Assembly (NCBI GenBank): GCA_041912555.1
Contig: JAYRMU010000063.1
Location: 103,236-167,235, forward strand
Reading direction: 5' to 3'
DNA from: Thermoanaerobaculia bacterium
GTDB lineage: Bacteria; Acidobacteriota; Thermoanaerobaculia; UBA5066; Gp7-AA6
Length of the DNA stretch: 64,000 nt
Both the position numbers and the translations under genes were made by a program. Positions 2,774 through 51,048 of this stretch are shown here, in pieces. Each line of letters opens with the position of its first letter. Within the stretch, counting starts at the first letter, position 1. Below the pieces are notes generated by a model. It searched no databases. It was not told the origin of the DNA and saw only the letters and a program-made list of their open reading frames with translations.

Positions 2774-3381
2774 CGGGCGGCGATCCTTTCCGCCACGGCG
2801 CGCGGGTCGGCGCTCTCCTGGAACAGCCGGATGGCGGCGACGCCGCTGATCCGGTCGCGGTACGGCTCGAGCTCCGAAAGGCGATCCTCGTCGATCCCGC
2901 CGATCGCGTAGACCTCGCATGCGTGGGTCCCTCGCGGGGGCAGCGCCGCCAGGGCGCCGGGACCGAGCGGCGGTCCGTATTGCCGCTTGGACGGCGTGTC
3001 GAAGACGGGGCCGATCACGACGAAATCGGCGCCCTGCGCGATCGCCTCCTCGGCTTCCGGCGCCGAGTGCGTCGACAGGCCGACACGGAAGCCGCGAGGC
3101 GTGTGGGCGCGGACCTTGGGCAGGGGCAGGCCGCTCGAGGGCAGATGGACCCCGGCCGCCCCGGCGGCCAGGGCGACGTCGAACCGGCGGTGCACGTAGA
3201 GCGCGACCGAGGGTCCGAGGCGGGCCTTCGCGTCGCGAGCCCGGTCCGCCAGGGCGCGGTCGTCGCCGCCCGCTTCCCGCAGCGTCACGCTCACCGCCGG
3301 CGCGCCCGCGAGGCGGTCGAGGACTCCGGCCAGGCGCTCGTCTCCGATCGCGGCGCGGTCGGTCACGTAGAGGGATCTCAT
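2770..3381 (-). CDS. thiE: thiamine-phosphate synthase
   Basis: 203 aa. Sequence is MRSLYVTDRAAIGDERLAGVLDRLAGAPAVSVTLREAGG...FVVIGPVFDTPSK...YAIGGI. Confidence 0.85.
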   Translation of the reverse strand: MRSLYVTDRAAIGDERLAGVLDRLAGAPAVSVTLREAGGDDRALADRARDAKARLGPSVALYVHRRFDVALAAGAAGVHLPSSGLPLPKVRAHTPRGFRVGLSTHSAPEAEEAIAQGADFVVIGPVFDTPSKRQYGPPLGPGALAALPPRGTHACEVYAIGGIDEDRLSELEPYRDRISGVAAIRLFQESADPRAVAERIAAR

Positions 3382-3626
3382 TCGCGCCGGGCGGACGCCT
3401 CGCGGGCCGCCTCGAGCCCCCGCGTGAGAAACCGGAGATCGGCAAAGCCGGCCGCGAGGTGGACGAGGCCGAGGCCCGACACGAAGCCGCGGAAGAACCC
3501 CGAGCCGAGGATCCCCGGAAGCGGCGCCCGGGCGGTCCAGGGACGCAGGAGCAGGTACACGCCGACCGTCGTGCAGTAGAAGACGAAGAGCGCGCTGGCA
3601 AACAAGGAGAGCACTTTCCGGCTCAT
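3378..3626 (-). CDS. small membrane protein (hypothetical), first gene of the thiE-mscS-acpS-ileS transcription unit
   Basis: 82 aa from MSRKVLSLFASALFVFYCTTVGVYLLLRPW. It has two predicted TM segments and a 4-nt overlap with the thiE start. Confidence 0.5.
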   Translation of the reverse strand: MSRKVLSLFASALFVFYCTTVGVYLLLRPWTARAPLPGILGSGFFRGFVSGLGLVHLAAGFADLRFLTRGLEAAREASARRE

Positions 3627-3746: not shown

Positions 3747-5978
3747 TCATGCCCTCCCGGGCGGCCGGCCCGACGATCCCGAGGGCGGCGCGGGGCGCGG
3801 CGCGGGAGCCGGCGCGGAGTGCGCGGGCGGGGCGGGGGCGGGTGCGGGGTGAGCCGGGGCTGCCTGCGGAGGCGGGGCCTGGGGCCGCGGCGCTTCGCGC
3901 GGCGGCGCGCCGGAGGAGCCGCGATCGTGCGGGGCGGACCCCGAGGGCGGCGCGCCGGTGTAGTCGCGCGGGGCCCCCTCGCGGTGGAGGGCGCCGGCGT
4001 CAGGCGTGCGGCGGCCGGGAACCGAACCCTCGATCACCCGCCGCGCGGGAGGAACGCCCTGGCCGTGCGCCCGCCAGTCTTCTCCGCTCCGGGCCGGGGG
4101 ATCCTCGCCCGTGCGCGCGTTGCCGCGACCGGGATCGGCGTTCGCGGCCTCGCCCTGCGAGCGGGAGCCGGAGGCGGTCCGGGAGCGCCAGTGCTCGCGG
4201 TTCTCGCGGCCGACCACGTTCGTGTCGGCGCTCTGGCGGGGCGCCTCGCCGGTGCGGCCGGGCTGCGGGCTCGCGCCGCCGCCGGCGCTGCGGGTGCGCC
4301 AGGCCTGCGTCGGGTCGGACCGGGGATCCGCGGGCCGCGCCTCGGAGCCGCGATCGGGACGAGCGGCCGTCGCGCCGCCCGTGGCGCGGTCGGCCGGATC
4401 GGCGGTCGTCCGGGATCCGCCGCGAATCACGGTCTTGCCGGTGTTGCGGTCGGTTTCGATGCGGGTCGGGCCCTCCACGTGCACGCCTCCCCGTCCCCGT
4501 TCGACGATGGTCGTCCCGCGGGGGGCGACTTCGGCGGCGCCCGGCCCGCTCAGGCGGCCCCGGTCGGCGACGACCGCGTGGTCGCGGAGCGTGTCCACGG
4601 TTTCGCGCGGCAGCTCGCGGTCGCGCGCGACGACGGGCTCGAGGCGCCGCTCGGTCTGGCGGTCCGAGGTCCGGGCGATCGTTCTTGGCGCCTCGCGGAC
4701 GTAGTCGCGCAGCGAGTCGCGGACCGCGACGCCCGACCGGGTGGGAACCACGATCGGCCGCGAGGAGATGGCGACCTGGCTTCCGAGCCGGTCCGCCACG
4801 CGCGTGCCGGGAACCACGTCGATGCGGCCGCGCGTCGTTCCGAAGCCGTTGGCGCCCGTGAAGTTCCAGCCGCGCATGTCCACCCGGCGCGTCGCGAAGG
4901 TGCCCTGGATCCCGAACGCCAGGCCGGCGCGGGGGTAGGACCAGTTGCGGTAGTAGTTGTCCCACCAGGGCGAGAAGCCCCCGTAGAACCCGAGCGGGCA
5001 CCAGCCCACGTAGGAGGGCGTGTAGGCCCAGTAGACCCACGCCGGCGAGTAGACGTAGCCGGGGGACCAGCACCAGCTGTTCCAGCCGGTGTCGAAGAAC
5101 CAGTTCCCGTAGTGGAAGGGGTACCAGCCCCAGGAATCCCAGGACCACCAGGTCAGGCCGGCCGGCGTGTAGTACCAGGAGCCGTTCGAGTAAGGGCTCC
5201 ATCCCGGAGCGACCGAGGGGCGCCAGACGTAGCTCGAGTACGTGGTGTTGTAGTCCCAGTTGCCATTGCCGTCGAGCGAGGCGACGTCGCCCGCGTAGTC
5301 CTCGCCGACGTACTGGGTGGAGGCGTTCTGCGGAGCGTCGTAGGTGGCCGCGAGACGGTCCGAGGCCCAGCTGTCGAAGCGGTCGTGCGAGAAGCTGCCG
5401 CGGGCGATCTCGGGCTCCTCCTCGCCGTGCGCCATCAGGTAGTTTCCGGCGCGCACCGTGTACGAGCCGAAGGGCGTGCGAACCTCGACCGAGCCCGCCC
5501 GAACGACGACGGCCGAGCCGTGCCGCGGGTCGGCGTTGACCCGGACCCGCGAGCCCGGGTTGGTGTAGACGGTGGCGTCTTCGGTGTCGACCCGGGGCAC
5601 GGCCTTGTCGTCCGATCCGACGACCGAGAGGATCACCGAGCCTTCCCTCAGGGAAATGGCGGAGACCTGGTCGTCCGAGCCCTGCTGCGCATAGAGGGAG
5701 ACGAACTGGACGGAGGTTCCTCCTCCGACGTGGAGCACGTTGCCGTCGGCGAGCGCCACTTCGGCGCGGCCCGGGTCGTCCGTCCGGAGCTCGTCGCCGG
5801 GCGAGATGGGCAGGTTGCGGCGGGCTTCGACGGTGCCGTTGAGCGTGGAAACGACGGTGACCTCGCCCGACACCTCCCGGACGTACGAGTACGCGCTCCG
5901 GTTCGGGGCCTGTCCCAACGCAGCCGACGCCGCCAGCAGGACCGAGGATGCCAGCAGGCCGATGCGTTTCGCGGTCAT
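3747..5978 (-). CDS. secreted FecR-domain protein with a Trp/Tyr-rich central region (DUF6600-like) and a Pro/Ala/Arg-rich low-complexity C-terminus
   Basis: Signal peptide MTAKRIGLLASSVLLAASAALGQ. FecR-like beta region (VALADGNVLHVGGGTSVQF...VVVRAGSVEV). W-rich block YYTPAGLTWWSWDSWGWYPFHYGNWFFDTGWNSWCWSPGYVYSPAWVYWAY. C-terminal PAPAPAPP repeats. The start was chosen at the ATG with GGAG 9 nt upstream. Confidence 0.65.
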   Translation of the reverse strand: MTAKRIGLLASSVLLAASAALGQAPNRSAYSYVREVSGEVTVVSTLNGTVEARRNLPISPGDELRTDDPGRAEVALADGNVLHVGGGTSVQFVSLYAQQGSDDQVSAISLREGSVILSVVGSDDKAVPRVDTEDATVYTNPGSRVRVNADPRHGSAVVVRAGSVEVRTPFGSYTVRAGNYLMAHGEEEPEIARGSFSHDRFDSWASDRLAATYDAPQNASTQYVGEDYAGDVASLDGNGNWDYNTTYSSYVWRPSVAPGWSPYSNGSWYYTPAGLTWWSWDSWGWYPFHYGNWFFDTGWNSWCWSPGYVYSPAWVYWAYTPSYVGWCPLGFYGGFSPWWDNYYRNWSYPRAGLAFGIQGTFATRRVDMRGWNFTGANGFGTTRGRIDVVPGTRVADRLGSQVAISSRPIVVPTRSGVAVRDSLRDYVREAPRTIARTSDRQTERRLEPVVARDRELPRETVDTLRDHAVVADRGRLSGPGAAEVAPRGTTIVERGRGGVHVEGPTRIETDRNTGKTVIRGGSRTTADPADRATGGATAARPDRGSEARPADPRSDPTQAWRTRSAGGGASPQPGRTGEAPRQSADTNVVGRENREHWRSRTASGSRSQGEAANADPGRGNARTGEDPPARSGEDWRAHGQGVPPARRVIEGSVPGRRTPDAGALHREGAPRDYTGAPPSGSAPHDRGSSGAPPREAPRPQAPPPQAAPAHPAPAPAPPAHSAPAPAPRPAPPSGSSGRPPGRA

Positions 5979-6174
5979 GGTCATGTCTCCCACACCCCGC
6001 AGACAGAGCGAGCCCCGTGCCACTCCGGCGGCTTGCCCGTCGCGAAAGAATGTGCTCTAAATCAAGGACTTATGCCAGCGGCAGGCAGGGCGACCGGGCG
6101 CGGCATGTCCCGCGCGGGAGACAGGCTGTGAGCGCCGAGGACACTTGCGCGGCGCGCCGGCGGCGGTGGCAGGC

Positions 6175-6684
6175 GTGATCCGCGACATCGTGCACTTCGG
6201 AGATCCGAGGTTGACGGCGAAGAACGAGGAGGTCGACGCCTCGAGCGAGGACCTGTCGGCGCTGGTCGCCGACATGGTCGAGACCTGCCACGCCGCCCCC
6301 GGCGTCGGCCTGGCCGCGCCGCAGATCGGGATCAACAAGAGGGTGGCGATCATCGACCTGTCGGTGGGGGCGGATCCCGACGGCGTCCTCGTCCTCGTCA
6401 ACCCGGTCGTCGTCGAGAGCTCCGGCGAGCAGAGGGAAGAGGAGGGCTGCCTCTCGGTACCCGACATCGCCGAGAAAGTCGTCCGGCCCGCTCGCGTCCG
6501 CGTCCGGGCCGCGGACCTGAAGGGGGCCGTCCGCGACATCGAGGGAACGGGCCTTCTGGCCCGTGCGTTGTGCCACGAGACGGACCACCTGAACGGCATG
6601 CTCTTCGTGGACCGGCTTCGGGGCCTCAAGCGGGAACTGACGTGGCGGAAGATCCGCCGCCGAAAGGAAAAGGGGATCTGGTGA
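6175..6684 (+). CDS. def: peptide deformylase
   Basis: (V)IRDIVHFGDPRLTAKNEEV...GVGLAAPQIG...EGCLSVPD...HETDHLNG. A GTG start at 6175 is assumed. The ORF track starts the ORF upstream, at TTG 6145. Confidence 0.85.
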   Translation: MIRDIVHFGDPRLTAKNEEVDASSEDLSALVADMVETCHAAPGVGLAAPQIGINKRVAIIDLSVGADPDGVLVLVNPVVVESSGEQREEEGCLSVPDIAEKVVRPARVRVRAADLKGAVRDIEGTGLLARALCHETDHLNGMLFVDRLRGLKRELTWRKIRRRKEKGIW

Positions 6685-8078
6685 GCCTCGCCGTCTTCAA
6701 CACACTCGGCCGCCGCGTCGTGACCTTCGAGCCCCGCGAGCCGGGGCACGTCCGGATGTACACCTGCGGGCCGACGGTCTACAACGTCGTGCACATCGGC
6801 AACCTCCGCACGTTTCTCTGGGAGGACGTGCTGCGGCGCCACCTCGCCGCCCGCGGCTGGCGCGTCACCCAGGTGATGAACCTGACCGACGTGGACGACA
6901 AGACGATCCGGGGCGCGGCGCAGGCGAAGCTGTCCCTGCGCGACTTCACCACGAAGTACGCCGACCTGTTCTTCCGCGACATCGAGAGGCTCGGCCTGCA
7001 GCGCGCGGAGCAGTACCCGCGGGCCACGGACCACGTCCCCGAGATGCTGGAGCTGACCGCGAAGCTCCTCGAGCGCGGGCACGCGTACGAGTCCGAGGGC
7101 TCCGTGTACTTCCGGATCGCGACGTTCCCGGACTACGGGAAGCTGTCCGGGATCGACCTGGCCGAGGCCCGGCGCGGCGAGCGGGTGGCCGACGACGAGT
7201 ACGAGAAGGAGGACGTCAAGGACTTCGTCCTCTGGAAGGCTGCCAAGCCGGGCGAGCCGTCCTGGCCGTCGCCGTGGGGCGAGGGCCGGCCCGGCTGGCA
7301 CATCGAGTGCTCCGCGATGAGCATGAAGTACCTCGGCCGCCATTTCGACATCCACACGGGCGCGGTGGACAACATCTTTCCCCACCACGAGAACGAGATC
7401 GCGCAGAGCGAGGCGGCGACCGGGGAGCCGTTCGTCGACGTGTGGCTCCACGCCGAGCACCTCATCGTGGACGGCGAGAAGATGGCCAAGTCCAAGGGCA
7501 ACTTCTTCACGCTCGACGACGTCCTCGCGCGCCGCGACGACCCGGTCGCCGTGCGGTACCTGCTCCTCTCGGTGCCCTACCGCAAGAAGCTCAACTTCAC
7601 GTGGGACGCGCTGGCCGCCGCGGCGTCCGCGGTCGAGCGCATCAAGTCCGCCCTGCAGAGGATCGAGGAGGCCGCGGCCTCGGGCGCCGCGAAGCCCGGG
7701 GCGTTCCCGGCCGACCGCGCCGCCCGGTTCGCGGCGGACTTCTCGGCCGCCCTCGACGACGACCTCAACACGGCCGAGGCCCTGGGCGTGCTCTTCAAGT
7801 ACCTCCGCGAGATCAACGCGGCGCTCGTCGACGGCTCGCTCGACGCCGCCAGCGCCTCGGCCGCGGCCGCCGCCATCCGCGGCGCGGACAGGGTCCTCGG
7901 CGTCCTGCCCCCGAAGGACGACGTCCTTCCGGCCGAGATCGAGGCCCGGATCGCCGACCGTCTCGCCGCCCGCAAGCGCCGCGACTTCGCCGAGGCCGAC
8001 CGCATCCGCGCCGAGCTCGCCGCCCGGGGGATCGTGCTCGAGGACGGCCCCGCGGGAACGAGGTGGAAGCGGGCTTGA
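6681..8078 (+). CDS. cysS: cysteinyl-tRNA synthetase
   Basis: VSLAVFNTLGRRVVTFEP...MYTCGPTVYNVVHIGNLRTF...KMAKSKGNFFTLDD (HIGH and KMSKS motifs). The GTG start overlaps the def stop. Confidence 0.9.
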   Translation: MSLAVFNTLGRRVVTFEPREPGHVRMYTCGPTVYNVVHIGNLRTFLWEDVLRRHLAARGWRVTQVMNLTDVDDKTIRGAAQAKLSLRDFTTKYADLFFRDIERLGLQRAEQYPRATDHVPEMLELTAKLLERGHAYESEGSVYFRIATFPDYGKLSGIDLAEARRGERVADDEYEKEDVKDFVLWKAAKPGEPSWPSPWGEGRPGWHIECSAMSMKYLGRHFDIHTGAVDNIFPHHENEIAQSEAATGEPFVDVWLHAEHLIVDGEKMAKSKGNFFTLDDVLARRDDPVAVRYLLLSVPYRKKLNFTWDALAAAASAVERIKSALQRIEEAAASGAAKPGAFPADRAARFAADFSAALDDDLNTAEALGVLFKYLREINAALVDGSLDAASASAAAAAIRGADRVLGVLPPKDDVLPAEIEARIADRLAARKRRDFAEADRIRAELAARGIVLEDGPAGTRWKRA

Positions 8079-8103
8079 GCGCTGGAGGCCCCGGCTCACG
8101 ACC

Positions 8104-8132
8104 TTGACACCCGCTCCCCCCGGCGGGATGAT
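8104..8132 (+). promoter_or_regulatory. candidate sigma70-type promoter for the trp leader / aroDE-trp operon
   Basis: Perfect -35 TTGACA (8104-8109), a 17-nt spacer, and a -10-like GATGAT (8127-8132). The leader ORF ATG at 8142 lies about 9 nt downstream, so the transcript would be leaderless or nearly leaderless. Confidence 0.4.
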
Positions 8133-8141
8133 GTCGCCTCG

Positions 8142-8192
8142 ATGACGAAGGTGCGCGTCTCCGGTTGGTGGTGGCGGGGGCAGACCCGGTAG
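8142..8192 (+). CDS. trpL: trp leader peptide candidate (16 codons: MTKVRVSGWWWRGQTR) with three consecutive Trp codons
   Basis: ATG 8142, then TGG TGG TGG at 8166-8174, then TAG at 8190. It lies between cysS and aroDE-trpEGDCFBA and is followed by a hairpin with a U-tract. Confidence 0.55.
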   Translation: MTKVRVSGWWWRGQTR

Positions 8193-8252
8193 GGCGCGAT
8201 CCGCCCTGCCGACGAAATCGGCCGGGGCGAACCAGAACGACGATAATCGGAA

Positions 8253-8289
8253 CCCCCGGCCCGGATGGGCTCGGGGGTTTTTGATTTTC
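8253..8289 (+). terminator. intrinsic terminator / attenuator hairpin immediately upstream of aroDE
   Basis: CCCCCGGCCC-GGAT-GGGCTCGGGGG stem-loop (8253-8277) followed by TTTTTGATTTTC. The upstream segment TCGGCCGGGG (about 8222-8231) can alternatively pair with the 5' arm, giving an antiterminator. Confidence 0.55.
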
Positions 8290-9765
8290 ATGGCCAGACG
8301 TCTTCCGAAACCGGCCTTCATCGCCTCGCTCGCGCCGAAAGACGCGGAGGACGCGAAGCGCCTCGTCGCGCGCGTTCCGGCGGCGGCCAACGCGATCGAG
8401 ATCCGGATGGACCTCGCGGAGAGGCCGATGCCGGCGGCGGCCGTGGCGAGCCTCGACGCGCGTCCGATCCTCCTGACCTGGCGGTCCCTGGCGGAGGGCG
8501 GGAAGTTCTCGGGATCGGCCGAGGAGTACCGGCGGCTCGTGACGGAGGCCTATGACGCCGGGGCGGCCGTGGACGTCGAGCACGCGCGAGGCCTCCTGTC
8601 CGACCGCTCGCTCTTTCCCGAGCGCGACCGCGTCGTGGTCTCGCTGCACTCGCCCTTCTCCCTGCCGGACGACTGGGAGGCGCGCCTGGCCGCGATGCGC
8701 GCCGCGGGCGCGGCGGCCGTGAAGCTGGTGGCGGGCGCGCCGGACGTGGCGGCGGGGCTGCGGATCGCGGGGATCCAGCGCCGCAGCGGCCCGGACGCCG
8801 CCGTCTTCCCGATGGGTCCGACGAGCGCGCCCGGGCGCGTCCTCTCGGCGCTCTTCGGAGCCGCCCTCGTGTACGGTCCGGTCGACCGGGACACCGCACC
8901 GGGCCAGGTCCCGATCGCGGACCTGCTCGACGTCTACGGGGTCGACCGGCCGCGGCCGATCGAGGCCCTGTTCGGGGTGATCGCGGGAAGCACCGCCCGG
9001 TCCCTCTCCCCGCGCCTCCACAATGCGCTGTTTCGCTCGCGCGACCTGCCGTACCTCTACCTGCCGCTGCAGGTCGCCGATTTCGAGCGCGAGAAGCCCC
9101 ACGAGATCGCGTTCGATCCGCCGTTCCGGGGCTTCGCCGTGACCCAGCCCTGGAAGCTCGCCGCCGCGCGCGCGGGCCGGCCCTCCGACGACGTCCGCCT
9201 GATCGGGGCGGCGAACACGCTCGTGCGCGAGCGCGGCGTCTGGCGAGCCGAGAACACCGACGTCGACGGCGTCTTCGATCCTCTCGCCGACCACGGAACG
9301 GGAGAGGGGCGCAGCGCGGTCGTCGTCGGCGCGGGCGGCGCCGCGCGCGCCGCCGTCGTGGCGGCGAGGCGGCTCGGGTACGAGGTGGCGATCGCCGCGC
9401 GGCGCGACGCCGAGGCCGACCGGCTCGCCGAGACCCTGCGCGTCGACTCGCTCGCGTGGTCGGACCTTCCGGCCAGCGAGGCGGACCTGTACCTCAACGC
9501 GACGCCGGTCGGCTGGCGGGACGACGAGCCGTCCGCCATCCCCGAGCGCGTGCTCGAGGGACGCCCGCTCGTCTTCGACTGCGTGTACCGGCGCGACGGG
9601 CGCGAGACCTCGACGATCCGGGCGGCCCGCGCCGCGAAGTGCCCGACGGTGGACGGCCTGCGCATGTTCGTCGTGCAGGCGGTTCGCCAGGCGCAACTCT
9701 TCGGCGTCGAGGGGGTGACCACCGAGGAAGTCGCCCGGATCCTGCGCGCGGGATTCCCGTCGTGA
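8290..9765 (+). CDS. aroDE: bifunctional 3-dehydroquinate dehydratase (type I) / shikimate 5-dehydrogenase fusion
   Basis: The N-terminal half is AroD-like (IEIRMDL...KLVAGAPD). The C-terminal half is AroE-like (SRDLPYLYLPLQV...NTLVRERGVWRAENTDVDG...VVVGAGGAARAAVVA...LYLNATPVG). Confidence 0.8.
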   Translation: MARRLPKPAFIASLAPKDAEDAKRLVARVPAAANAIEIRMDLAERPMPAAAVASLDARPILLTWRSLAEGGKFSGSAEEYRRLVTEAYDAGAAVDVEHARGLLSDRSLFPERDRVVVSLHSPFSLPDDWEARLAAMRAAGAAAVKLVAGAPDVAAGLRIAGIQRRSGPDAAVFPMGPTSAPGRVLSALFGAALVYGPVDRDTAPGQVPIADLLDVYGVDRPRPIEALFGVIAGSTARSLSPRLHNALFRSRDLPYLYLPLQVADFEREKPHEIAFDPPFRGFAVTQPWKLAAARAGRPSDDVRLIGAANTLVRERGVWRAENTDVDGVFDPLADHGTGEGRSAVVVGAGGAARAAVVAARRLGYEVAIAARRDAEADRLAETLRVDSLAWSDLPASEADLYLNATPVGWRDDEPSAIPERVLEGRPLVFDCVYRRDGRETSTIRAARAAKCPTVDGLRMFVVQAVRQAQLFGVEGVTTEEVARILRAGFPS

Positions 9766-11296
9766 GCCGACGCGGCGGGGAGCGCGAAGCCTTCCTGGCG
9801 AAGGCGCGGGCCGGCCGGTGCGTTGCGGTCGCGCGGGAGCTCCCCGCGGACCTCCTGACCCCCGTGATGCTCTTCTCGCGCATGCGGGCCGCGGGGGAGG
9901 AGTCGTTCCTTCTCGAGAGCGTCGAGGGCGGGGAGACCGTCGCGCGATACACGTTCCTCGGCACCCGCCCGAGCGCCCGCTGGACGCTGCGCGACGGCGT
10001 GGCGAGCGTCGAGCGGGACGGAAAGAGCGCCCGTCCGCCGGGGCTCCCGCTGGCTTCGCTCGAGGCGCTCGCCCGGAAAGAGCCCTTCGTGCCCGACCCC
10101 GATCTCCCGCCGCTCTGTTCCGGCGCCGTCGGGTTCCTGTCCTACGACGCCGTGCGCCTCTTCGAGGAGATCCCGGACCGCCACGCCCGCGAAGGCGCGA
10201 TTCCCGACGCGCTCTTTCTCCTCTTCGACGCGGTCGCGGCCTTCGACCACCCGCGGCAGCGCCTCGTCCTGCTGACCACGCTCGATCTCACGGACGGCGG
10301 CGACGCCGGCGCCGAGGCGGACGGCGCGATCGCGCGGCTCGACCGGCTCGAGGCCCTGGTGCACGGCGGCGCGGCGGCGCCGAAGGCTCCCTCGCGCCGC
10401 GCCGCCCCGGCGGACGGCTCCGGTTTTCAGGCCGCCGTCCCGAGGGAGCGCTTCCTGGAGGCCGTCGGCGTGATCAAGGAGGCCATCGCTTCCGGCGAGG
10501 TCTACCAGTGCGTCCTGTCGCAGCGCTGGACGGCGCGCCTCGGGATCGATCCGTTCGCCGTCTACCGCGCCCTGCGCGCCCTGAACCCGTCGCCCTACCT
10601 CTTCTATCTCGAAACGCGCGAGGCGACGATCCTCGGCTCCTCGCCCGAGATGCTCGTGCGGTGCCGCGGGCCCCGTGTCGAAACACGACCCATCGCCGGG
10701 ACCACCGCCCGCGGCGCGACGCCCGAGGACGACGCGCGCCTGGCGGCGGCCCTGCTCGCCGATCCGAAGGAGCGCGCCGAGCACGTGATGCTGGTGGACC
10801 TCTCGCGCAACGACCTCGGGCGCGTCTGCGAGGTGGGCAGCGTGGCCGTGCCCCGGTACGCCACGGTCGAGAAGTTCTCCCACGTGCAGCACATCGTGTC
10901 GGAGGTGCGCGGCCGCCTCGCGGCGGGACGCAGCGCCGCCGACGCCCTGGCCGCTTGCTTTCCGGCCGGAACGCTGACGGGCGCCCCGAAGATCCGGGCG
11001 ATGGAGCTGATCGACGGCCTCGAGGCGAAGCGCCGCGGGATCTACGGCGGCGCGGTCGGCTACTTCGATGCGGCCGGCAACTGCGACATGGCGATCGCGA
11101 TCCGGACCGCGGTGGTGGAGAAGGGGTTCTGGAAGATCCAGGCCGGCGCCGGCATCGTCGCCGACTCCGTGCCCGAGCGCGAGTACGCCGAGGCCGAGTC
11201 CAAGGCCGCCGCGCTCTTTCGCGCGATCGAACTGGCGGGCGACTGGTTCGGCTCCGCGAGTCCGAAATCCGAAGCTCGACATCCGGAATCCCCCTC

Positions 11297-11300
<4 letters not shown>
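9762..11300 (+). CDS. trpE: anthranilate synthase component I
   Basis: LLESVEGGE...YQCVLSQRW...LFYLETREATILGSSPEMLV...GTLTGAPKIRAMELIDGLE...AGAGIVADS. The GTG start overlaps the aroDE stop (GTGA). Confidence 0.9.
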
Positions 11301-11865
<565 letters not shown>

Positions 11866-11869
<4 letters not shown>

Positions 11870-12888
11870 CGCCGGGAATCGCGGAGGCGCTGCGCATGGT
11901 CGCCGGGCGAAAGACCCTGCCTCGCGCCCTGGCCGAGGCGGCGTTCGGCGACCTCATGGACGGGCGCGCGACCGAGGCGCAGAAGGGCGCGATCCTGCTC
12001 GGGATCGCCACGCGCGGCGAAACGGCCGACGAGATCGCGGGAGCCGTCGCGGCCCTGCGCCGGAGGATGCGGCGCGTCGAGACGCGGCGGTCGCCGCTGC
12101 TCGACACCTGCGGTCCCGGCGGCCTCGGCCGCGACCTCTTCAACGTCTCGACGGCGGCCGCGATCGTCGCGGCGGGGGCGGGCGCCGCCGTGGCGAAGCA
12201 CGGAAACCGCTCGATCTCCTCCCGCGTCGGGTCGGCCGACGTCCTCGAGGCGGGCGGCGTGCGCGTCGACCTCGGGCCTTCCGCGGCCGGCCGCGTGCTG
12301 GACGAAGCGGGGATCGTCTTCCTCTTCGCCCCGGGGTTCCATCCGGCGATGCAGGAGCTCGGCACCGTGAGGCGGGAGCTCGGCATCCGCACGATCTTCA
12401 ACGCCCTCGGTCCCCTCGCCAACCCGGCCGGAGCGACGCGGCAGCTGATCGGCGTCGGGAGGCCGGACCTCGTGCGCCTGCTCGCGGACGCGCTCGCCTC
12501 GCTCGGCAGCGAGCACGCGATCGTCTTTCATTCCGAGACGGGGCTCGACGAGCTGGTTCCCGGCCACCCGGCCTCCGGCGTCGAGGTCCTGGACGGCTGG
12601 ACCCGGCCGTGGCGGTTCGACCCGGCCGAGTTGCCGCAGCCGCCCGTGACGCTCGAGGAGCTCAAGGGGGGAGACGCCGCGGAAAACGCCGCGATGCTGC
12701 GGCGCCTGCTCGAGGGGGAAACGGGTCCCCGGCGCGAGGCGGTCCTCGCCAACGCGGCCGTCGCGCTGGTCGTCGAGGGGCGCGCCGCGACGGCCCGCGA
12801 AGGATACGAGCGCGCACGGGCGGCGCTCGACGCGGGAGAGGCGGCGCGCCGCTTCGAGAGGATGAAGCAGGCCTCGGGAGCGGCATGA
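11866..12888 (+). CDS. trpD: anthranilate phosphoribosyltransferase
   Basis: DTCGPGGLGRDLFNVSTAAAIVAAGAG...VAKHGNRS...GIRTIFNALGPLANP. Confidence 0.9.
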
Positions 12889-13652
12889 GCGACGTCCTGA
12901 CGGCGATCCTCGCCTCGAAGCAGTCGCGCCTCTCGCGGGGCGAGTACGCGGCGCGGGGCGTCGCGGCGCGCCCGAGCGACGGCGCGGGCTTCGCGGCCTC
13001 GCTGCGCGCTCCGGGCACGCGCATCATCGCGGAGTTCAAGGCGAAGTCCCCGTCGGCCGGGCAGATCCTCTCGAATCCCGACGGGAAGGTCGAGAGCTTC
13101 GCGCTCTTCTACCGGCGGGGGCACGCGGCCGCGATCTCCGTCGTGACCGAACAGGACCACTTCGGCGGAGACCCCTCCTGGCTGCCGAGGATGAAGGCGA
13201 TGTCGGGCCTTCCCGTCCTCATGAAAGACTTCCTCTTCGACGAGCGGCAGCTCGACTTCGCCGCGGCGCTCGGAGCGGACGCCGTTCTGCTCATCGTGCG
13301 CGCCCTGCGCGACGAGGACCTCGCCCGGCTGCGCGCGGGGGCGCGCGAGCGGGGGCTCGCCGCCGTCGTCGAGGCGCACGGGGCCGTCGAGATCCGGCGG
13401 GCCGCCGCCGTCGAGCCGGACGCGGTCGGCGTCAACGCCCGGGATCTCGCGAATTTCCAGACCGACATCGGCTCGATCGAGGCGATGGCCCGCGAGATCC
13501 CGAGCGGGCCCGTCCGCCTGGCGGAGAGCGGAATCCGCACCCGCGAGGACGTCGAGCGGCTCGCGGCGGCCGGGTTCGAGGCGTTCCTCGTCGGCGAGAG
13601 CCTCCTGCGGGCCGACGATCCCGAGGAAGCGCTGCGGGGCCTGCGGGGATGA
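12885..13652 (+). CDS. trpC: indole-3-glycerol phosphate synthase
   Basis: IIAEFKAKSPSAGQI...AAISVVTEQDHFGG...GVNARDLANFQTD. ATGA overlap with trpD. Confidence 0.9.
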   Translation: MSDVLTAILASKQSRLSRGEYAARGVAARPSDGAGFAASLRAPGTRIIAEFKAKSPSAGQILSNPDGKVESFALFYRRGHAAAISVVTEQDHFGGDPSWLPRMKAMSGLPVLMKDFLFDERQLDFAAALGADAVLLIVRALRDEDLARLRAGARERGLAAVVEAHGAVEIRRAAAVEPDAVGVNARDLANFQTDIGSIEAMAREIPSGPVRLAESGIRTREDVERLAAAGFEAFLVGESLLRADDPEEALRGLRG

Positions 13653-14266
13653 CGGCCGTCAAGATCTGCGGCCTCACCCGGCCGGAGGACGTCGCCGCCG
13701 CCTGCGAGCTCGGCGCGGCGTACGCGGGCTTCAACTTCGCGGCGCAGTCCCCTCGGCGCGTCACGCCGGCCGCCTCCCGCGAGCTCGCGCGGGCCTGCGC
13801 GCCCGGAGTCCTCAAGGTCGGCGTCTTCGTCGGAGAGGGCGCGGATGCGATCGCTCGCGCCGTCGAGTCCGCGGGCCTGGATCTCGTGCAGCTCCACCGG
13901 CGTATCACGGAGGAGGACGTCGCCGCCTCTCCCGTGCCGATCATCGCCGTCGCCCGCCCCTCGGGCCCGCGCTTCGACGTGCCGCGCGGCGACATCCTCG
14001 TGCGCTGTCATGCCCTCCTCTACGACCCGAGCGAAGGCGCCGGGGCGCGGATCGACCCGGCCCGCGTCGAGGAGGCGAGCTGGCCCGTGCCGGTGCTGGT
14101 GGCGGGAGGACTGACGCCCGAGACGGTGGGCGCCGTCATCCGAAGCCTGCGGCCGGCCGGCGTCGACGTCGCGTCCGGCGTCGAGAGCGCTCCGGGAGTC
14201 AAGGACCGCGGGGCGCTCTCGCGGTTCTTCGCGGCGGTGAGGGAGGCGGATGCGCAAGCGGGCTAG
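13649..14266 (+). CDS. trpF: phosphoribosylanthranilate isomerase
   Basis: [30 protein letters not shown]...[12 protein letters not shown]. Confidence 0.85.
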
Positions 14267-15443
14267 GGAACGGCGCGGCTACTTCGGCGAGTACGGAGGC
14301 CAGTTCGCGCCCGAGACGCTCATGGCGCCGCTCGCGGAGCTCGAGACGGCCTTCGCGAAGTGGCGGCGCGACCGCGGGTTCCGGGGCGAGCTCGACGAGC
14401 TCCTGCGGAGCTACGCCGGCCGTCCGACGGCGCTGACGTTCGCGGACCGGCTGACGCGCCGGTGCGGGGGAGCGCGCATCGCCCTGAAGCGCGAGGACCT
14501 CCTGCACACGGGAGCGCACAAGCTCAACAACGCCCTCGGTCAGGTCCTGCTCGCCCGGAAGATGCGCAAGTCGCGGGTCGTCGCGGAGACGGGCGCGGGA
14601 CAGCACGGGGTCGCCACCGCGGCCGCCGCGGCCAAGCTCGGAATCCCGTGCCGCGTCTACATGGGCGTGACGGACATGGCGCGCCAGTCCCCGAACGTCG
14701 CGCGGATGCGCCTGCTCGGCGCCGAGGTCGTCGGCGTGGACTCGGGCTCGAGGACGCTCAAGGACGCGATCAACGAGGCGATGCGCGACTGGACGGAGAA
14801 CGTGGCGACGACGCACTACGTGCTCGGCTCGGCCCTCGGTCCGCACCCCTACCCGTCCATCGTGCGGGAATTCCAGTCCGTCATCGGCCGCGAGGCGCGC
14901 CGCCAGTTCCGCAGGCTCGCGGGCCGGGACCCGCGAGCGGCCGTGGCCTGCGTCGGAGGGGGATCCAACGCGATCGGCCTCTTCTCGGCGTACCTCGCGA
15001 CCCGCGTCGCGCTCTACGGGGTCGAGGCCGGCGGCCGCGGGTCCGGGCCCGGAGAGCACGCGGCGCGCTTTTCGGGCGGCGCGGTCGGGGTGCTGCACGG
15101 CACGCGCACCATGCTCCTCCAGGACGAGGCGGGCCAGATCCTGCCGACCCACTCGGTCTCGGCGGGCCTCGATTACCCGGCGGTCGGACCGGAGCACGCG
15201 GCCCTCCACGACGCGGGGCGCGTCACCTACGCGCGCGTGTCCGACGCGGAGGCGCTCGACGCGTTCGCGCTCCTCTGCGAGACCGAGGGCATCCTGCCGG
15301 CCCTCGAGTCGGCGCACGCCATCGCGTTCGCGGCGAAGCTCGCGCGCCGCCTGCCGCGCGCCGCGTGGGTCCTCGTGAACCTCTCGGGCCGCGGCGACAA
15401 GGACCTCGACGAGTACCTGCGGGCGCGGGGCGAGGTTCCGTGA
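14250..15443 (+). CDS. trpB: tryptophan synthase beta subunit
   Basis: [10 protein letters not shown]...[20 protein letters not shown]...[10 protein letters not shown]...GGGSNAIG. Confidence 0.9.
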
Positions 15444-16243
15444 GCCGCCTCGCCGACGCGTTCGCGCGAGCCGGGCGCGAGGGGCGGGCGGCCTTCGTCG
15501 CCTACGTCACCGCGGGCGATCCCTCGCCGGACGCCACGGTCGCCCTGGCCCGCGCCCTCGCGCGCGCCGGGACCGACGTCCTCGAGCTCGGCGTGCCGTT
15601 TTCCGATCCGATCGCGGACGGCCCCGTCCTCCAGCGGGCGGCCTCCCGCGCGATCGCGGCGGGGACGACCCTCGAGCGGGTCTTCGAGATCGCGCGGCGC
15701 ATCCGGGCGGAGACCGACCTCGCGCTCGTCCTCTTCTCGTACCTGAACCCCGTCCTGCGGCGGGGCATCGGCCGGGCGGCGCGCGAGGCGCGGGAGGCCG
15801 GATTCGACGGGGCGCTACTCACCGACCTGCCGCCCGAGGAAGCCGGCGCCCTGCAGCCGGTCCTGCGCGCGGCCGGCCTCGACACGGTCTTCCTGGTGTC
15901 GCCCACGTCGCCCCCGGCGCGCATGGCGGCGGCCGCGCGGCTCTCGAGCGGGTTCCTCTACGTCGTGTCCCGGTCGGGGACGACGGGCGCCCGCCAGGAC
16001 CTCGCGCGCGACCTGCCCGAAACCGTGCGCCGCGCGCGAAAGGAGGCCGGAACGCTTCCGGTCGCGATCGGCTTCGGCATCGCCACGCCGGACGCCGCCG
16101 CCCGCGCCGCGGGTCTGGCCGACGGCGTCGTCGTGGGATCCGCCCTCGTCCGGGCGGCGGAGGAGGCGGGGGAGGGCCGGGAGGCCGCCGTCGAGAAGCT
16201 CGCGAGGACTCTCGCTCGGGCGTGCCGGCGCCCGGCAAAGTAG
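15440..16243 (+). CDS. trpA: tryptophan synthase alpha subunit
   Basis: [14 protein letters not shown]...[18 protein letters not shown]...[13 protein letters not shown]...GFGIATPD. The GTG start overlaps the trpB stop. Confidence 0.9.
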
Positions 16244-16246
16244 GGC

Positions 16247-16906
16247 ATGCGCACCGAGGGGGAGTGCCTCAAGCTCCTTCGCCGGCCGGACCTTCCGGCC
16301 GAAACTCTTCAGGAAATTCTGGGAGACCGGGCGGCCCGCAGGTTCCACGCGGTGCGCCGGGCCCTGGCCGCCCACCCGCGAACGCCTCGCGGGGACGCGC
16401 TCGCGCTGGTCGCGACGCTCTTCTGGAGGGATCTCGCCTGGCTCTCGGCGGACGTGCGGGTTCACCCCGCGATCCGGAGGGCGGCGGACCTCGACCTGCT
16501 GCGCCGGCTGCCGGAGATGGCGGTCGCCGAGCGGGTCGACCTGGCTCGCAACGTCGGCCGGGGCGCTCTCCTGGCGCTGCGGCTCGACCCCGACCCCAGG
16601 GTCCTCGCCTCCGTGCTGGAAAACCGGTTCGCGATCGAAGCGGACATCGTCCAGGCCGCGGCCGCCGGCCAGGGGGAGCGGGCGGAGTGCCTGTCCCTGA
16701 TCGCCGAACACCCCCGCTGGGGCGTCCGTCCGGCCGTCCGGAGCGCGATCCTGAGGAATCCGGCGCTCCCGCAGTCCGTCGCGCTGTCGCTGCTGACCCG
16801 GGCGAGCCTCGACGACCTGCGCGGGATCGTCGAATCCCCCCGTTCGGCGCCGCTCCTGCGGGCCTGCGCGGAAAGAGTCCTTGCGGAGCGGGTCGCAGCG
16901 GTCTAG
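16247..16906 (+). CDS. hypothetical alpha-helical repeat protein (LRV/HEAT-like repeats), co-transcribed after trpA
   Basis: Its ATG lies 3 nt after the trpA stop. It contains repeated DPDPRVLASVLEN.../HPRWGVRPAVRSAILRNPALP motifs. There is no recognisable enzyme motif. Confidence 0.5.
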   Translation: MRTEGECLKLLRRPDLPAETLQEILGDRAARRFHAVRRALAAHPRTPRGDALALVATLFWRDLAWLSADVRVHPAIRRAADLDLLRRLPEMAVAERVDLARNVGRGALLALRLDPDPRVLASVLENRFAIEADIVQAAAAGQGERAECLSLIAEHPRWGVRPAVRSAILRNPALPQSVALSLLTRASLDDLRGIVESPRSAPLLRACAERVLAERVAAV

Positions 16907-16937
16907 CATCGAGTGTCCTCAATCGCGGGAGACGAGC

Positions 16938-17717
16938 ATGGGTGAGACACCGGGCCTCACGTTCGGAGAGGAGCTCCGTCGGGAGAGGCTCATCCGCGAG
17001 GTCTCGCTCGAAGAAATCTCGGCGTCGACGAAGATCTCGGTCCGCCTGCTGACCGCCCTGGAATCGAGCGATCTCTCCCGGCTTCCCGCGCCGGTCTTCA
17101 CGCGGGGGTTCATCCGCTCCTACTCCCGGCACCTGGGACTCGACCCCGACGAGATGGTCAACGCGTACCTCGCCGACCTCGCGCCGGACAAGTCGGGCGA
17201 CGGGGCCTCGAAGAAGGGCCGCCTCCGGTCCCGCTTTCTCCGGGGCCGCCGCGCCGCCGCGAGCACGATCGTCATCAGCGTCACCGCCATCCTCCTCGTG
17301 CTCGGCCTGATCGCGCGTCCGGCGCGGCACAGCATCGGCTCCACGCCGATCGTCCAGCGCCACGTCGCTCCCGTGACGTTCAAGAACGTCGCGGTGTCTC
17401 CCGGGCCGGCGCCCGTGGCCGTTCACGAAGAGACCGCGGCGGACGCGGCCAAGCCCGCGGCCGGAGTCTCGATGGAGCTCGAGTTCGAGCAGGACTCGTG
17501 GACCGAGGTGACCACGGCCGACGGACAGCCGATCTTCTCCGGTCTCGCTCGGCGCGGCACGAAGCAGCGGTTCGAGGCGCACGACGGGTTCCGCCTGACG
17601 CTCGGCAACGCCGGCGGCGTGCGCGTGACCGTGGACGGCCGTCCCCTCGAGCCGCTCGGCGGAGCGGGCCAGGTGGTCCGCAATCTGCCTCTGCCCGCGC
17701 GCCTGACGCAGAGCTAG
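16938..17717 (+). CDS. rodZ: RodZ-like cytoskeleton protein (N-terminal HTH, TM segment, C-terminal DUF4115-like domain)
   Basis: MGETPGLTFGEELRRERLIREVSLEEISASTKISVRLLTALE. TM helix AASTIVISVTAILLVLGLIA. C-terminal EFEQDSWTEVTTADGQPIF...GNAGGVRVTVDGRPL. GGGAG lies 10 nt upstream of the ATG. Confidence 0.8.
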   Translation: MGETPGLTFGEELRRERLIREVSLEEISASTKISVRLLTALESSDLSRLPAPVFTRGFIRSYSRHLGLDPDEMVNAYLADLAPDKSGDGASKKGRLRSRFLRGRRAAASTIVISVTAILLVLGLIARPARHSIGSTPIVQRHVAPVTFKNVAVSPGPAPVAVHEETAADAAKPAAGVSMELEFEQDSWTEVTTADGQPIFSGLARRGTKQRFEAHDGFRLTLGNAGGVRVTVDGRPLEPLGGAGQVVRNLPLPARLTQS

Positions 17718-17737
17718 CCGACCCGGGTCGCTGTCTC

Positions 17738-18835
17738 TTGGCCGAGCCCGATCCTTCCCCGCTCACCGAGCCCCGGGACCTGCTCGCCATCGTGCGCTCC
17801 CCGGAGGCGCCGCGCGAGCTGCGCGCGTTCGCCGCCCGGGGCCTGCTGCCGCTCGAGAGCGTCGATCGCCTGCGGGCCCTGCTCGCCGTCGTGGAGGACC
17901 CGGACCCGGAGGTCGGCCCGCCGGCGCTGGCCACCCTGGCCGCGATCGCGCCCGACGACGTCGCGCACTTCGTCGACGCGGCCGAGCCGACGGCCAGAGA
18001 GCTCGACGTCATCAGCCGCCACACCGACGATCACGTGGTCCTCGAGCGGATCATCCGGAATCGGGACGCCGGCGACGACACGCTGTTGCGCCTTGCCGGC
18101 TCCGTGAGCGGAGCCCCGCAGGAAGCGCTGATCGTCAACCAGGTGCGCCTGATCCGCCAGCCCGCGCTCATCGATGCCCTCCTCGGGAATCCCGAGCTGA
18201 CGATCGACGGGCGTCGCCGCCTGCTCGAGCTGCGCGAGGAGTTCTTCGAGAAGGAGGAGCGCCGCCGGGAGCAGGAGCGGCTGCGCGCCGAAGAGGCGGA
18301 GCGGATCGCGCGGCAGGAGGCGGCCGGCATCGTGTTCGAGGAGGCCGCGTCGGAGGAGGGCGCTCCCGAGGAAGAGGGCGAGGAGACGCCCGCGGGGGAG
18401 GAGGACGAATACAGCTCGGCCAACCTCGCCCAGGTCTTCCGGCGCATCTCCATGATGACGGTCAAGGAGAAGCTGGCGCTCGCCCAGCGCGGGACCAAGG
18501 AAGAGCGCCGGATCCTCATCGCCGACGTGAACAAGATCGTGAGCCTCGCCGTCCTGCGGTGCGAGTCGCTGACGCCGGCCGAGGTGGAGTCGATCTGCGC
18601 GATGCGGAATCTCCACCAGGAGATCTTCCACGAGATCGCCACGACGCGGGAGTGGATCAAGCGTCCCCGCATCCAGATCGCGCTGGTGAACAACCCCGCG
18701 GTGCCCCTGCCCCTCACCCTCCCGCTGATCAAGTTCCTGAGCATGCGGGAACTGCGCAACCTGGCGCGCGATCGGAATCTCGCGGAGGGCATTCGGATGG
18801 CCGCGCGCAAGCTCCTGCTCGACAAGCGCGGCTGA
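17738..18835 (+). CDS. hypothetical repeat protein with a Glu-rich coiled/acidic linker; its C-terminus is paralogous to that of the 16247..16906 protein
   Basis: A TTG start at 17738 is assumed (LAEPDPSPL...). Acidic stretch EEFFEKEERRREQERLRAEEAERIARQEAAG...EEEGEETPAGEEDEY. The C-terminus KFLSMRELRNLARDRNLAEGIRMAARKLLLDKR resembles SLLTRASLDDLRGIVESPRSAPLLRACAERVLAER of the upstream protein. Confidence 0.5.
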   Translation: MAEPDPSPLTEPRDLLAIVRSPEAPRELRAFAARGLLPLESVDRLRALLAVVEDPDPEVGPPALATLAAIAPDDVAHFVDAAEPTARELDVISRHTDDHVVLERIIRNRDAGDDTLLRLAGSVSGAPQEALIVNQVRLIRQPALIDALLGNPELTIDGRRRLLELREEFFEKEERRREQERLRAEEAERIARQEAAGIVFEEAASEEGAPEEEGEETPAGEEDEYSSANLAQVFRRISMMTVKEKLALAQRGTKEERRILIADVNKIVSLAVLRCESLTPAEVESICAMRNLHQEIFHEIATTREWIKRPRIQIALVNNPAVPLPLTLPLIKFLSMRELRNLARDRNLAEGIRMAARKLLLDKRG

Positions 18836-18873
18836 GCGGAACCGGGCCTTCGCCCCTCCCGGGGGGAGGCCGC

Positions 18874-18902
18874 TTGCCGAAGCCCCTCGTTTCCCGTATG
18901 TT
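18874..18902 (+). promoter_or_regulatory. weak candidate promoter upstream of the DnaJ-TPR gene
   Basis: TTGCCG (18874-18879), 17 nt, then TATGTT (18897-18902). A GC hairpin CCTCCC-GG-GGGAGG lies just upstream. Confidence 0.25.
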
Positions 18903-18947
18903 ACCCTCTGAAGAAATCGCCCGCTGCGCGGTCGAGGTTCCAGCAAG

Positions 18948-19568
18948 ATGCCGCGAGACATTGACTATTACGACCTGCTCGGCGTGGCCCGGGACGCCAG
19001 CGAAGTCGAGATTCGAGAGCGGTTTCGCGCTCTGGCGCGGGAGGCTCACCCGGATCGGGCGCCGGCCGGCAAGAAGGCGGAAGCGGAAGCGAAGTTTCAG
19101 GACCTGACCGAGGCGGTGAACGTGCTGACGAACCCGGAGAGGCGGAAATCGTACGACTTCGACCTGGCCGCCGCGGCCGGGATGTCCGGCGACGCCGACG
19201 TCGTCGCCCAGAACTACCTCGGCCAGGGGATCGCTGCCTACAAGGAGCGCAAGTTCGCCGAGGCCGCGGGCAACTTTCAGCTGGCCGTCGGGCGCAACCC
19301 GCGCGACGTCAAGGCCCAGCACTATCTGGGGCTGGCCTCGGCCCGGGCCGGCGACGTGCGCATGGCCGTCAAGGCCATCGAGGCCGCTCTCACCATCGAG
19401 CCGCACAACGGCGCCCTCCTGAAGGACGCCGGGGCGATCTTCCGGCAGGCCGGTCTCCTGCTCAAGGCGGAGAAGGCGTACCAGGAAGCCATTCGCTGGG
19501 ATCCCGCGGCGGGCGAGGCGCGCAAGGCGCTCGAAGAAATCCGCGTGCAGCGGGCAGGCCGAGGGTAA
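18948..19568 (+). CDS. DnaJ (J-domain) protein with C-terminal TPR repeats
   Basis: IDYYDLLGVARDASEVEIRERFRALAREAHPDRA (J-domain with HPD). TPR-like repeats follow (AAYKERKFAEAAGNFQLAVGRNPRDVKAQHYLGLA...). Confidence 0.8.
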   Translation: MPRDIDYYDLLGVARDASEVEIRERFRALAREAHPDRAPAGKKAEAEAKFQDLTEAVNVLTNPERRKSYDFDLAAAAGMSGDADVVAQNYLGQGIAAYKERKFAEAAGNFQLAVGRNPRDVKAQHYLGLASARAGDVRMAVKAIEAALTIEPHNGALLKDAGAIFRQAGLLLKAEKAYQEAIRWDPAAGEARKALEEIRVQRAGRG

Positions 19569-19575
19569 CGCCGCC

Positions 19576-50963: not shown

Positions 50964-51048
50964 GCGAAAGTGGCGGAACTGGTAGACGCGCAGGTTTCAG
51001 GAACCTGTGGGTAACACCGTGAGGGTTCGAGTCCCTCCTTTCGCACCA
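50964..51048 (+). tRNA. tRNA-Leu (anticodon CAG), 85 nt including CCA
   Basis: GCGAAAGTGGCGGAACTGGTAGACGCGCAGGTTTCAGGAACCTGTGGGTAACACCGTGAGGGTTCGAGTCCCTCCTTTCGCACCA. Anticodon loop TTCAGGA. Long variable arm. Near-identical in architecture to E. coli tRNA-Leu(CAG). Confidence 0.9.

Follow-up and report, generated by a model that had tools for sequence, protein, structure and literature searches.

A probable ribosome-mediated attenuator upstream of the aroDE-trp operon in Thermoanaerobaculia, with sensor codons that match operon content across related loci

What sets the expression of the operon aroDE-trpEGDCFBA in a Thermoanaerobaculia bacterium? The question is raised by a stretch of 64,000 nucleotides (nt) of contig JAYRMU010000063.1, here called the window, in which this operon lies downstream of cysS. 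An initial annotation had placed a classical trp attenuator between them, and the parts that it named are present. Pfam bears out the position between cysS and aroDE-trpEGDCFBA; a TTGACA hexamer, a 17-nt spacer and a GATGAT hexamer are found at 8104-8132; the 16-codon open reading frame (ORF) with three consecutive UGG codons occupies 8142-8192 exactly as described; and a GC-rich hairpin (stem 8252-8279) is followed by a T-rich tract that leads into the aroDE start codon (ATG at 8290). Comparison with relatives supports this reading as a whole. On that comparative evidence we consider it very likely that the leader is a classical, that is ribosome-mediated, transcription attenuator, which would set the expression of aroDE-trpEGDCFBA by the supply of charged tRNA-Trp.

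The comparison draws on three overlapping samples. A profile search with aroDE gave 80 genomic loci, 75 of which, counting the window, include the upstream region and were aligned; unless stated otherwise, frequencies refer to these 75. A pattern scan of metagenomes contributed about 52 further true copies of the scaffold, roughly 68 of its 120 hits being false positives, and the association between leader and gene content was scored over the 90 loci whose downstream genes could be resolved. The complete unit is kept at about 130 related Thermoanaerobaculia loci. Among the false positives of the metagenome scan was a candidate Cys leader ending in CCLNQARG and a stop, which proved to be a recurrent coding sequence.

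The leader ORF (MTKVRVSGWWWRGQTR, plus strand, 8142-8192) consists of 16 sense codons and a TAG stop at 8190-8192, and reads ATG ACG AAG GTG CGC GTC TCC GGT TGG TGG TGG CGG GGG CAG ACC CGG TAG. Its three UGG codons (8166-8174) lie 15 nt before the stop. The initial annotation would have been refuted by relatives without a conserved Trp-codon leader, and the contrary is observed: the start, frame and stop of the leader are kept in 74 of the 75 aligned loci, despite a length that ranges from 14 to 19 codons and an N-terminal half that is free to vary in sequence. A frame maintained in this way is the signature of translation, and not of the product, being conserved. The last sensor codon is 12, 15 or 18 nt from the stop in all 75 loci, and every one of the 69 trp-linked aligned leaders contains between one and four Trp codons. 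The peptide that follows the Trp codons is also conserved, as R-E-x-x-R-stop (8166-8189 in the window, alignment columns 137-160), the window itself having RGQTR. The corresponding codons are nearly always CGG GAG .. .. CGG, which creates a Shine-Dalgarno-like GGGAGG inside the ORF. RNA pairing, pausing through the anti-Shine-Dalgarno or an effect of the peptide may be the reason for it.

Do the sensor codons have anything to do with the genes that they precede? Trp-type leaders are followed by aroDE and then trpE in 75 of 75 loci, leaders with HHWHH by aroDE and then hisZ in 13 of 13, and the two leaders with HHGHH, in which there is no Trp codon, stand directly before hisZ and hisG, without aroDE. 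Leader codons match operon content in all 90 resolvable loci with zero exceptions, a figure that counts related sequences and not independent events. This exception-free match is the strongest evidence available that the ORF would act as a translated amino-acid sensor. Sister lineages have in effect performed a natural codon-swap experiment, in which one scaffold carries Trp, His-plus-Trp or His codons depending on the content of the operon, and sequence alone could hardly supply stronger evidence for attenuation.

The His-containing versions deserve a closer description. Six aligned loci (L027, L030, L031, L039, L053 and L070, at about 3880-3995 in most) have leaders ending in HHWHH(E/G)VNR and a stop, and it is precisely there that aroDE is followed by hisZ, hisG, hisD and hisC, and not by trpE. 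Further HHWHH leaders are found in L083, L085, L107, L111, L146, L149 and L151, and in L201 at 5158-5345. On the long contigs of L111 and L201 the genes run aroDE-hisZ-G-D-C-B-H-A-F-IE-trpE-trpG(-trpD); these genes overlap and a second leader is absent, one HHWHH leader thus serving the combined his-trp operon. The HHGHH leaders (L135, match at 1928-1968, and L170) end in HHGHHQ(E/G)NR and a stop, with the scaffold straight before hisZ-hisG(-hisD); they are two loci only, perhaps closely related. Since aroDE is missing there, the central W of HHWHH has been lost where the aromatic gene is absent. We know of no combined His-plus-Trp leader before an aroDE-his-trp operon, and our literature searches found none. 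Leaders mixing Tyr and Trp codons also occur upstream of aroDE, ending in NYWRYWVNR (DFSNYWRYWVNR in L141 and L165) or SYWYWSDNR (L171), each followed by the stop. In L141 aroDE is followed by trpE; the contigs of these Tyr/Trp loci are short and show the operon only in part. To judge by their codons, such leaders may sense two aromatic amino acids.

Could the same arrangement be explained without any sensor? The hairpin might simply be the cysS terminator, followed by an ordinary trp promoter and a chance ORF, or the RNA might bind a ligand or a protein. The hairpin does lie 175 nt after cysS, and the scaffold sequence is conserved far beyond what base pairing needs. Yet a chance ORF would not be expected to hold its frame in 74 of 75 loci at variable length, nor would its codons follow operon content in 90 of 90 loci; the element is also present where cysS is not the neighbour (L201), and there is neither a riboswitch or T-box match in Rfam nor a set of TRAP triplets. 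An explanation without a sensor is strongly disfavoured, and we regard it as extremely improbable. As for the searches behind this statement, a cmscan of 7800-8600 at E<=10 gave chance hits only (among them small nucleolar RNAs and a small RNA) and no match to the Rfam leader families, Trp_leader (RF00513) included. A T-box riboswitch was rejected because no Rfam match to one appeared in the same interval at the same threshold. A scan of the whole window at gathering thresholds returned a single tRNA gene (50964-51045, plus strand) and nothing else. TRAP-type attenuation, as in Bacillus, is characterised by 9-11 (G/U)AG triplets spaced 2-3 nt; it was rejected too, the interval 8135-8290 having one triplet of this type, which is the stop codon, and no array.

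How the leader would be transcribed and its translation begin can be read from the promoter. The -35 hexamer TTGACA (8104-8109, plus strand) and the -10 hexamer GATGAT (8127-8132, plus strand, of the NAnnnT type) form the only sigma-70-type promoter that a consensus scan detects within 6000-20000, for 0.2 in shuffled sequence. Of the 75 related loci, 66 have TTGAC[A/T/G], and 64 of these 66 have an NAnnnT hexamer at a spacing of 17-18 nt; in all 75, a start codon stands only a few nt from the predicted -10. The leader start codon falls 6-10 nt past the predicted -10 in all 64 loci with scorable -35 and -10 boxes (9 nt in 41 of them, and in the window, with its ATG at 8142), which supports the earlier suggestion of a leaderless or nearly leaderless messenger. 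This geometry would place the start of transcription about 0-3 nt from the AUG; the transcript would thus be leaderless or have a leader of at most about 3 nt, and a promoter this close to the AUG leaves no room for a Shine-Dalgarno site. In documented leaderless genes a TAnnnT box precedes the start codon by about 12 nt, the gap being typically of 6-7 nt, and about 13% of the genes are predicted to be leaderless in three Acidobacteria genomes (PMC3160421). Nine loci are devoid of TTGACA and have instead a TGATAT that overlaps the cysS stop codon and may be an extended -10 promoter. The subgroup that mostly lacks TTGACA (L032, L036, L038, L041, L049, L052, L058, L060 and L064, alignment columns 40-80; among the metagenome loci, L090-L092, L110, L113, L121, L124 and L175) mostly has leaders of the form W-C-W, G-C-W, L-C-W or C-C-W, in which a conserved Cys codon stands next to Trp and the Trp codon is sometimes single.

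Within the transcript, five near-invariant segments, all on the plus strand, are G-rich and C-rich by turns, each able to pair with its neighbours. S1 (CGGUAGGGCG, 8187-8196), which holds the UAG, and S2 (CGCCCUGCCG, 8202-8211) are the 5' and 3' arms of a hairpin at the stop codon, as folding and alignment indicate. Being complementary to S3 too, S2 is a candidate anti-antiterminator. S3 (UCGGCCGGGGCG, 8218-8229) would be the 5' strand of the antiterminator; S4 (ACCCCCGGCCC, 8252-8262), with which it can pair, is otherwise the 5' arm of the terminator, and S5 (GGGCUCGGGGGUU, 8267-8279) is the 3' arm. A sixth segment, S0 (8156-8169), lies in the coding sequence before and into the Trp codons and emerged from the minimum free energy (MFE) fold; it can pair with S3 in ribosome-free RNA, so that S3 has S0, S2 and S4 as possible partners.

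The two local hairpins are well defined. The terminator S4:S5 (8252-8279) has a predicted energy of -23.7 kcal/mol, pairs in 95% of the alignment cells and shows two compensatory pairs. It is followed by a U-tract (TTTTTGATTTTC, 8278-8289, plus strand) that reaches the aroDE start codon and whose first four T are invariant or at least 90% conserved; a run of at least four U after the hairpin is conserved in nearly all loci. The pattern CCCC...GGGGKTTTT occurs once in the 64 kb of the window, at this terminator, for 0.03 expected. The stop-codon hairpin S1:S2 (8187-8211, 10 base pairs, -20.2 kcal/mol) ranks with the best-conserved parts of the element, with 97% of cells pairing and two compensatory pairs. 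Taken jointly, the two helices pair in 96% of cells with four compensatory pairs, and both are recovered by RNAalifold. In five loci (L036, L038, L041, L052 and L064) the stop-codon hairpin is extended by an inserted stem of about 12 nt (alignment columns 158-194); the first four of these have a UAA stop, which gives an A-C mismatch in the conserved stem, and L064 keeps UAG.

The alternative helices are of a different nature. S2:S3 would reach -19.5 kcal/mol over 9-10 bases; 91% of its cells pair, where slid registers give 68% at most. S3:S4 (GGCCGGGG:CCCCGGCC) would form eight G-C pairs with a predicted energy of -19.5 kcal/mol, and here the figures are 88% of cells in register and no more than 82% when slid. 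What is observed for both is conserved complementarity, and the pairings themselves are predicted. Conservation beyond the needs of a single helix is what overlapping alternative pairings would produce, an argument and not a proof. The initial annotation had assigned the antiterminator strand (TCGGCCGGGG) to 8222-8231; its pairing to the 5' arm of the terminator holds, and its position is 8218-8227. Also, of the classical 1:2, 2:3 and 3:4 scheme that had been put forward, the terminator and antiterminator pairings are present in essentially all loci, but the scheme is incomplete: it missed the hairpin at 8187-8211, an invariant feature that would add a second anti-antiterminator.

How would these segments work as a switch? 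When Trp is scarce, a ribosome would stall on the UGG codons with its front edge just short of S1, and S1:S2 would form. With S0 inside the ribosome and S1:S2 intact, S3 would be left free for S4 and would pair with it once S4 is made; the terminator would be blocked, and transcription would read through into aroDE. When Trp is plentiful, the ribosome would reach the stop codon and melt S1:S2, the freed S2 would capture S3, S4 would pair with S5 and transcription would end in the U-tract. With no ribosome at all, S0:S3 would close around the S1:S2 hairpin and the terminator would form again. The terminator hairpin could possibly also hide the aroDE ribosome-binding site. In this model, termination would be the outcome in every state but stalling on the sensor codons. 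The details of the switch, with its five or six segments, could in our opinion equally turn out right or wrong.

Folding with a ribosome mask, in which everything is blocked up to about 10 nt past the A-site codon, gives the structures that the model would call for. With the ribosome on the last sensor codon and RNA up to S4, S1:S2 and S3:S4 are predicted in 74 of the 75 loci; with the ribosome on the stop codon and the full RNA, S2:S3 and the terminator are predicted in 74 as well. In free RNA the terminator forms in 74 loci and S0:S3 in 67. The spacing also agrees with the model, the sensor codons lying 12-18 nt ahead of the stop-codon hairpin in all loci. A purely thermodynamic switch can be rejected, given that the terminator forms in every masked state of the full-length leader.

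It may be asked whether all these segments are needed. A plain four-segment attenuator would manage with S0:S3, the antiterminator S3:S4 and the terminator S4:S5, leaving S1:S2 as a mere spacer or polymerase pause hairpin and S2:S3 as a helix that never forms in vivo. This simpler design agrees with the MFE fold of the free RNA of the window, in which S0:S3 encloses S1:S2 and the terminator is present, with the S0:S3 predicted in those 67 free RNAs, and with the lack of covariation in support of S2:S3. The S0:S3 duplex also beats shuffles in many loci: it has -20.0 kcal/mol in the window against -14.5 kcal/mol for shuffles (z = -2.1), and over the 75 loci, compared to dinucleotide shuffles, the mean z is -1.08, with 27 loci below -1.64, which is moderate support. 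However, an entire clade has retained the rest of the scaffold with a weak S0:S3 or none at all. Furthermore, S1:S2 has to melt anyway once a ribosome sits on the stop codon, and it is hard to explain why a spacer should contain S2, a near-invariant segment that can pair over 9-10 bases with S1 as well as with S3, at -19.5 kcal/mol. We find the four-segment design unlikely.

Another way to regulate aroDE from the same hairpin would be translational attenuation, in which S4:S5 mainly hides the aroDE ribosome-binding site, translation of the leader opens the hairpin, and there is little termination. The GGGGG run of S5 precedes the aroDE AUG by 12 nt in the window (8273-8292); many relatives have a TTG start 8 nt after the run, and some aroDE starts are TTG codons within the U-tract. 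From this spacing, the run may serve as the aroDE ribosome-binding site and be occluded by the terminator. But the run of at least four U conserved after the hairpin is the hallmark of an intrinsic terminator, and a mainly translational mechanism appears very improbable to us. Besides, the translational and transcriptional modes are not mutually exclusive.

Returning to the ribosome-mediated transcription attenuator, several observations weigh against it or against parts of it. Even while a ribosome is stalled, the terminator is about 10 kcal/mol more stable at equilibrium than the antiterminator, and the latter must therefore work by kinetic trapping. When the ribosome has reached the stop codon but the RNA extends only to S4, S2:S3 prevails in 40 of the 75 loci and S3:S4 in 36, a near tie that obliges S2:S3 to win by forming first. 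The 75-locus alignment shows no covariation for S2:S3 or S3:S4, and tests of it are uninformative because the columns barely vary. S0:S3 exceeds shuffles only moderately and is absent in one clade. Some trp-linked leaders (L041, L043, L049, L052 and L061) have a single Trp codon. The gap between the -10 box and the AUG is 9-10 nt, 2-3 nt longer than in the documented leaderless genes (6-7 nt; PMC3160421), which makes a leader of 2-3 nt equally likely, and the start of transcription is itself placed by promoter geometry. Finally, the aroDE homologues carry the labels Thermoanaerobaculia or Acidobacteriota and every sequence used comes from an uncultured, metagenome-assembled genome; the relatedness of the 90 loci, mentioned above, belongs here too.

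How does the element compare to attenuators that are already known? The trp leader of Escherichia coli (trpL, RF00513) offers the closest parallel in logic. Both have a short leader ORF in which tandem Trp codons are followed by Arg, the E. coli motif being WWR; in both, an intrinsic terminator stands just before the first structural gene and an antiterminator shares the 5' arm of the terminator. The position of the ribosome, which decides the fold in E. coli, would do so here as well. The E. coli terminator likewise outweighs the antiterminator at equilibrium and antitermination proceeds through a kinetic trap, so that kinetic control would be common to both. In contrast to trpL, with which cmscan at E<=10 finds no homology of sequence or structure, the window leader lacks a Shine-Dalgarno site and begins at the predicted 5' end or directly beside it; its stop codon lies within an extra conserved hairpin, whose 3' arm is a candidate second anti-antiterminator; and the first regulated gene is aroDE and not trpE.

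Among enterobacterial attenuators, that of his (RF00514) works through segments A-F, a chain of more than four that pair alternately, as they would here. It differs in that the core segments of the window leader are odd in number and in that a stalled ribosome, as we propose, would leave the first hairpin to form instead of masking it. The thr leader combines Thr and Ile codons, and the ilv leader Leu, Val and Ile codons; as in these, where the codon mix mirrors the amino acids made, the sister lineages have HHWHH before a his-plus-trp operon. Actinobacterial trp attenuators share with ours the high-GC context. The trp leader of Corynebacterium diphtheriae (MTNMNAHNWWWRA) contains a WWWR motif (PMC5784534), which the window leader has as well, and the ilvB leader peptide of Corynebacterium is translated from a leaderless transcript (PMC5784534), the mode of translation that is likely here. 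According to PMC4833913, tryptophan-dependent attenuation has experimental support in Corynebacterium glutamicum and in Streptomyces venezuelae (trpEG leader). Still, the element described here belongs to another phylum (Acidobacteriota, class Thermoanaerobaculia), its RNA sequence is unrelated to theirs and its operon opens with aroDE.

The mechanism is a textbook one and no new principle is involved. What sets the element apart from known cases is the additional hairpin at the stop codon, the position of aroDE as first regulated gene, and the phylum. The recoding of a single scaffold in step with operon content is unusually clean, and the family is unannotated. In the searchable literature we found nothing specific on trp attenuators of Acidobacteria or Thermoanaerobaculia, and a description elsewhere is possible. 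With these findings, ribosome-mediated attenuation of the classical kind would reach into Acidobacteriota, a major phylum of soils in which gene regulation is almost uncharacterised, and they provide a well-conserved RNA family, missing from Rfam, that annotation pipelines could use. The compact, probably leaderless design, with four competing helices that are nearly isoenergetic, makes the element a good object of study, and it might be used in high-GC hosts as a programmable sensor of amino acids.

More tentatively, and with somewhat more doubt than conviction, we propose that Thermoanaerobaculia possess a reusable attenuator chassis made up of the promoter, the leaderless ORF and the five-segment RNA, the amino-acid specificity of which may be re-programmed by editing a few sensor codons as the operon gains or loses genes. 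Its switch logic would be unlike that of E. coli, a ribosome that melts the stop-codon hairpin releasing the anti-antiterminator. From their sequences, the versions of such a chassis would carry WWW before trp genes, HHWHH before the aroDE-his-trp super-operon and HHGHH where his stands alone, with YWRYW or YWYW in further lineages. When the window and about 200 loci (1.44 Mb) were searched with a pattern and with nhmmer, each locus yielded a single copy of the scaffold, the remaining hits being matches of the hairpins to themselves on the reverse strand; versions for other amino acids elsewhere on the same contigs thus found no support. In L125 (about 3100-3420, minus strand) and L142, tandem repeats with a unit of about 57 nt (containing GTAGGGCATGGTCGAGCGCAGCGAGCCCTGCCGATTTTCCC) were discarded as a chance pattern match, unrelated to the attenuator.

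The genes around the leader are all on the plus strand. The upstream neighbour cysS (6570-8078; PF01406, PF09190 and PF23493) lies outside the regulated unit. The first regulated gene, aroDE (8290-9765; PF01487 and PF08501), encodes a type I 3-dehydroquinase fused to a shikimate dehydrogenase; an exact-protein lookup gave no match on record for it. It is followed by trpE (9762-11300), trpG (11297-11869), trpD (11866-12888), trpC (12885-13652), trpF (13649-14266), trpB (14250-15443) and trpA (15440-16243), all assigned through Pfam. Every start codon overlaps the preceding stop, which suggests that all eight genes form a single, translationally coupled operon (8290-16243). In L201, the gene directly upstream is not cysS but one encoding a PHP domain (4335-5183), within whose last 30 bases the attenuator promoter is located; adjacency to cysS is thus not universal.

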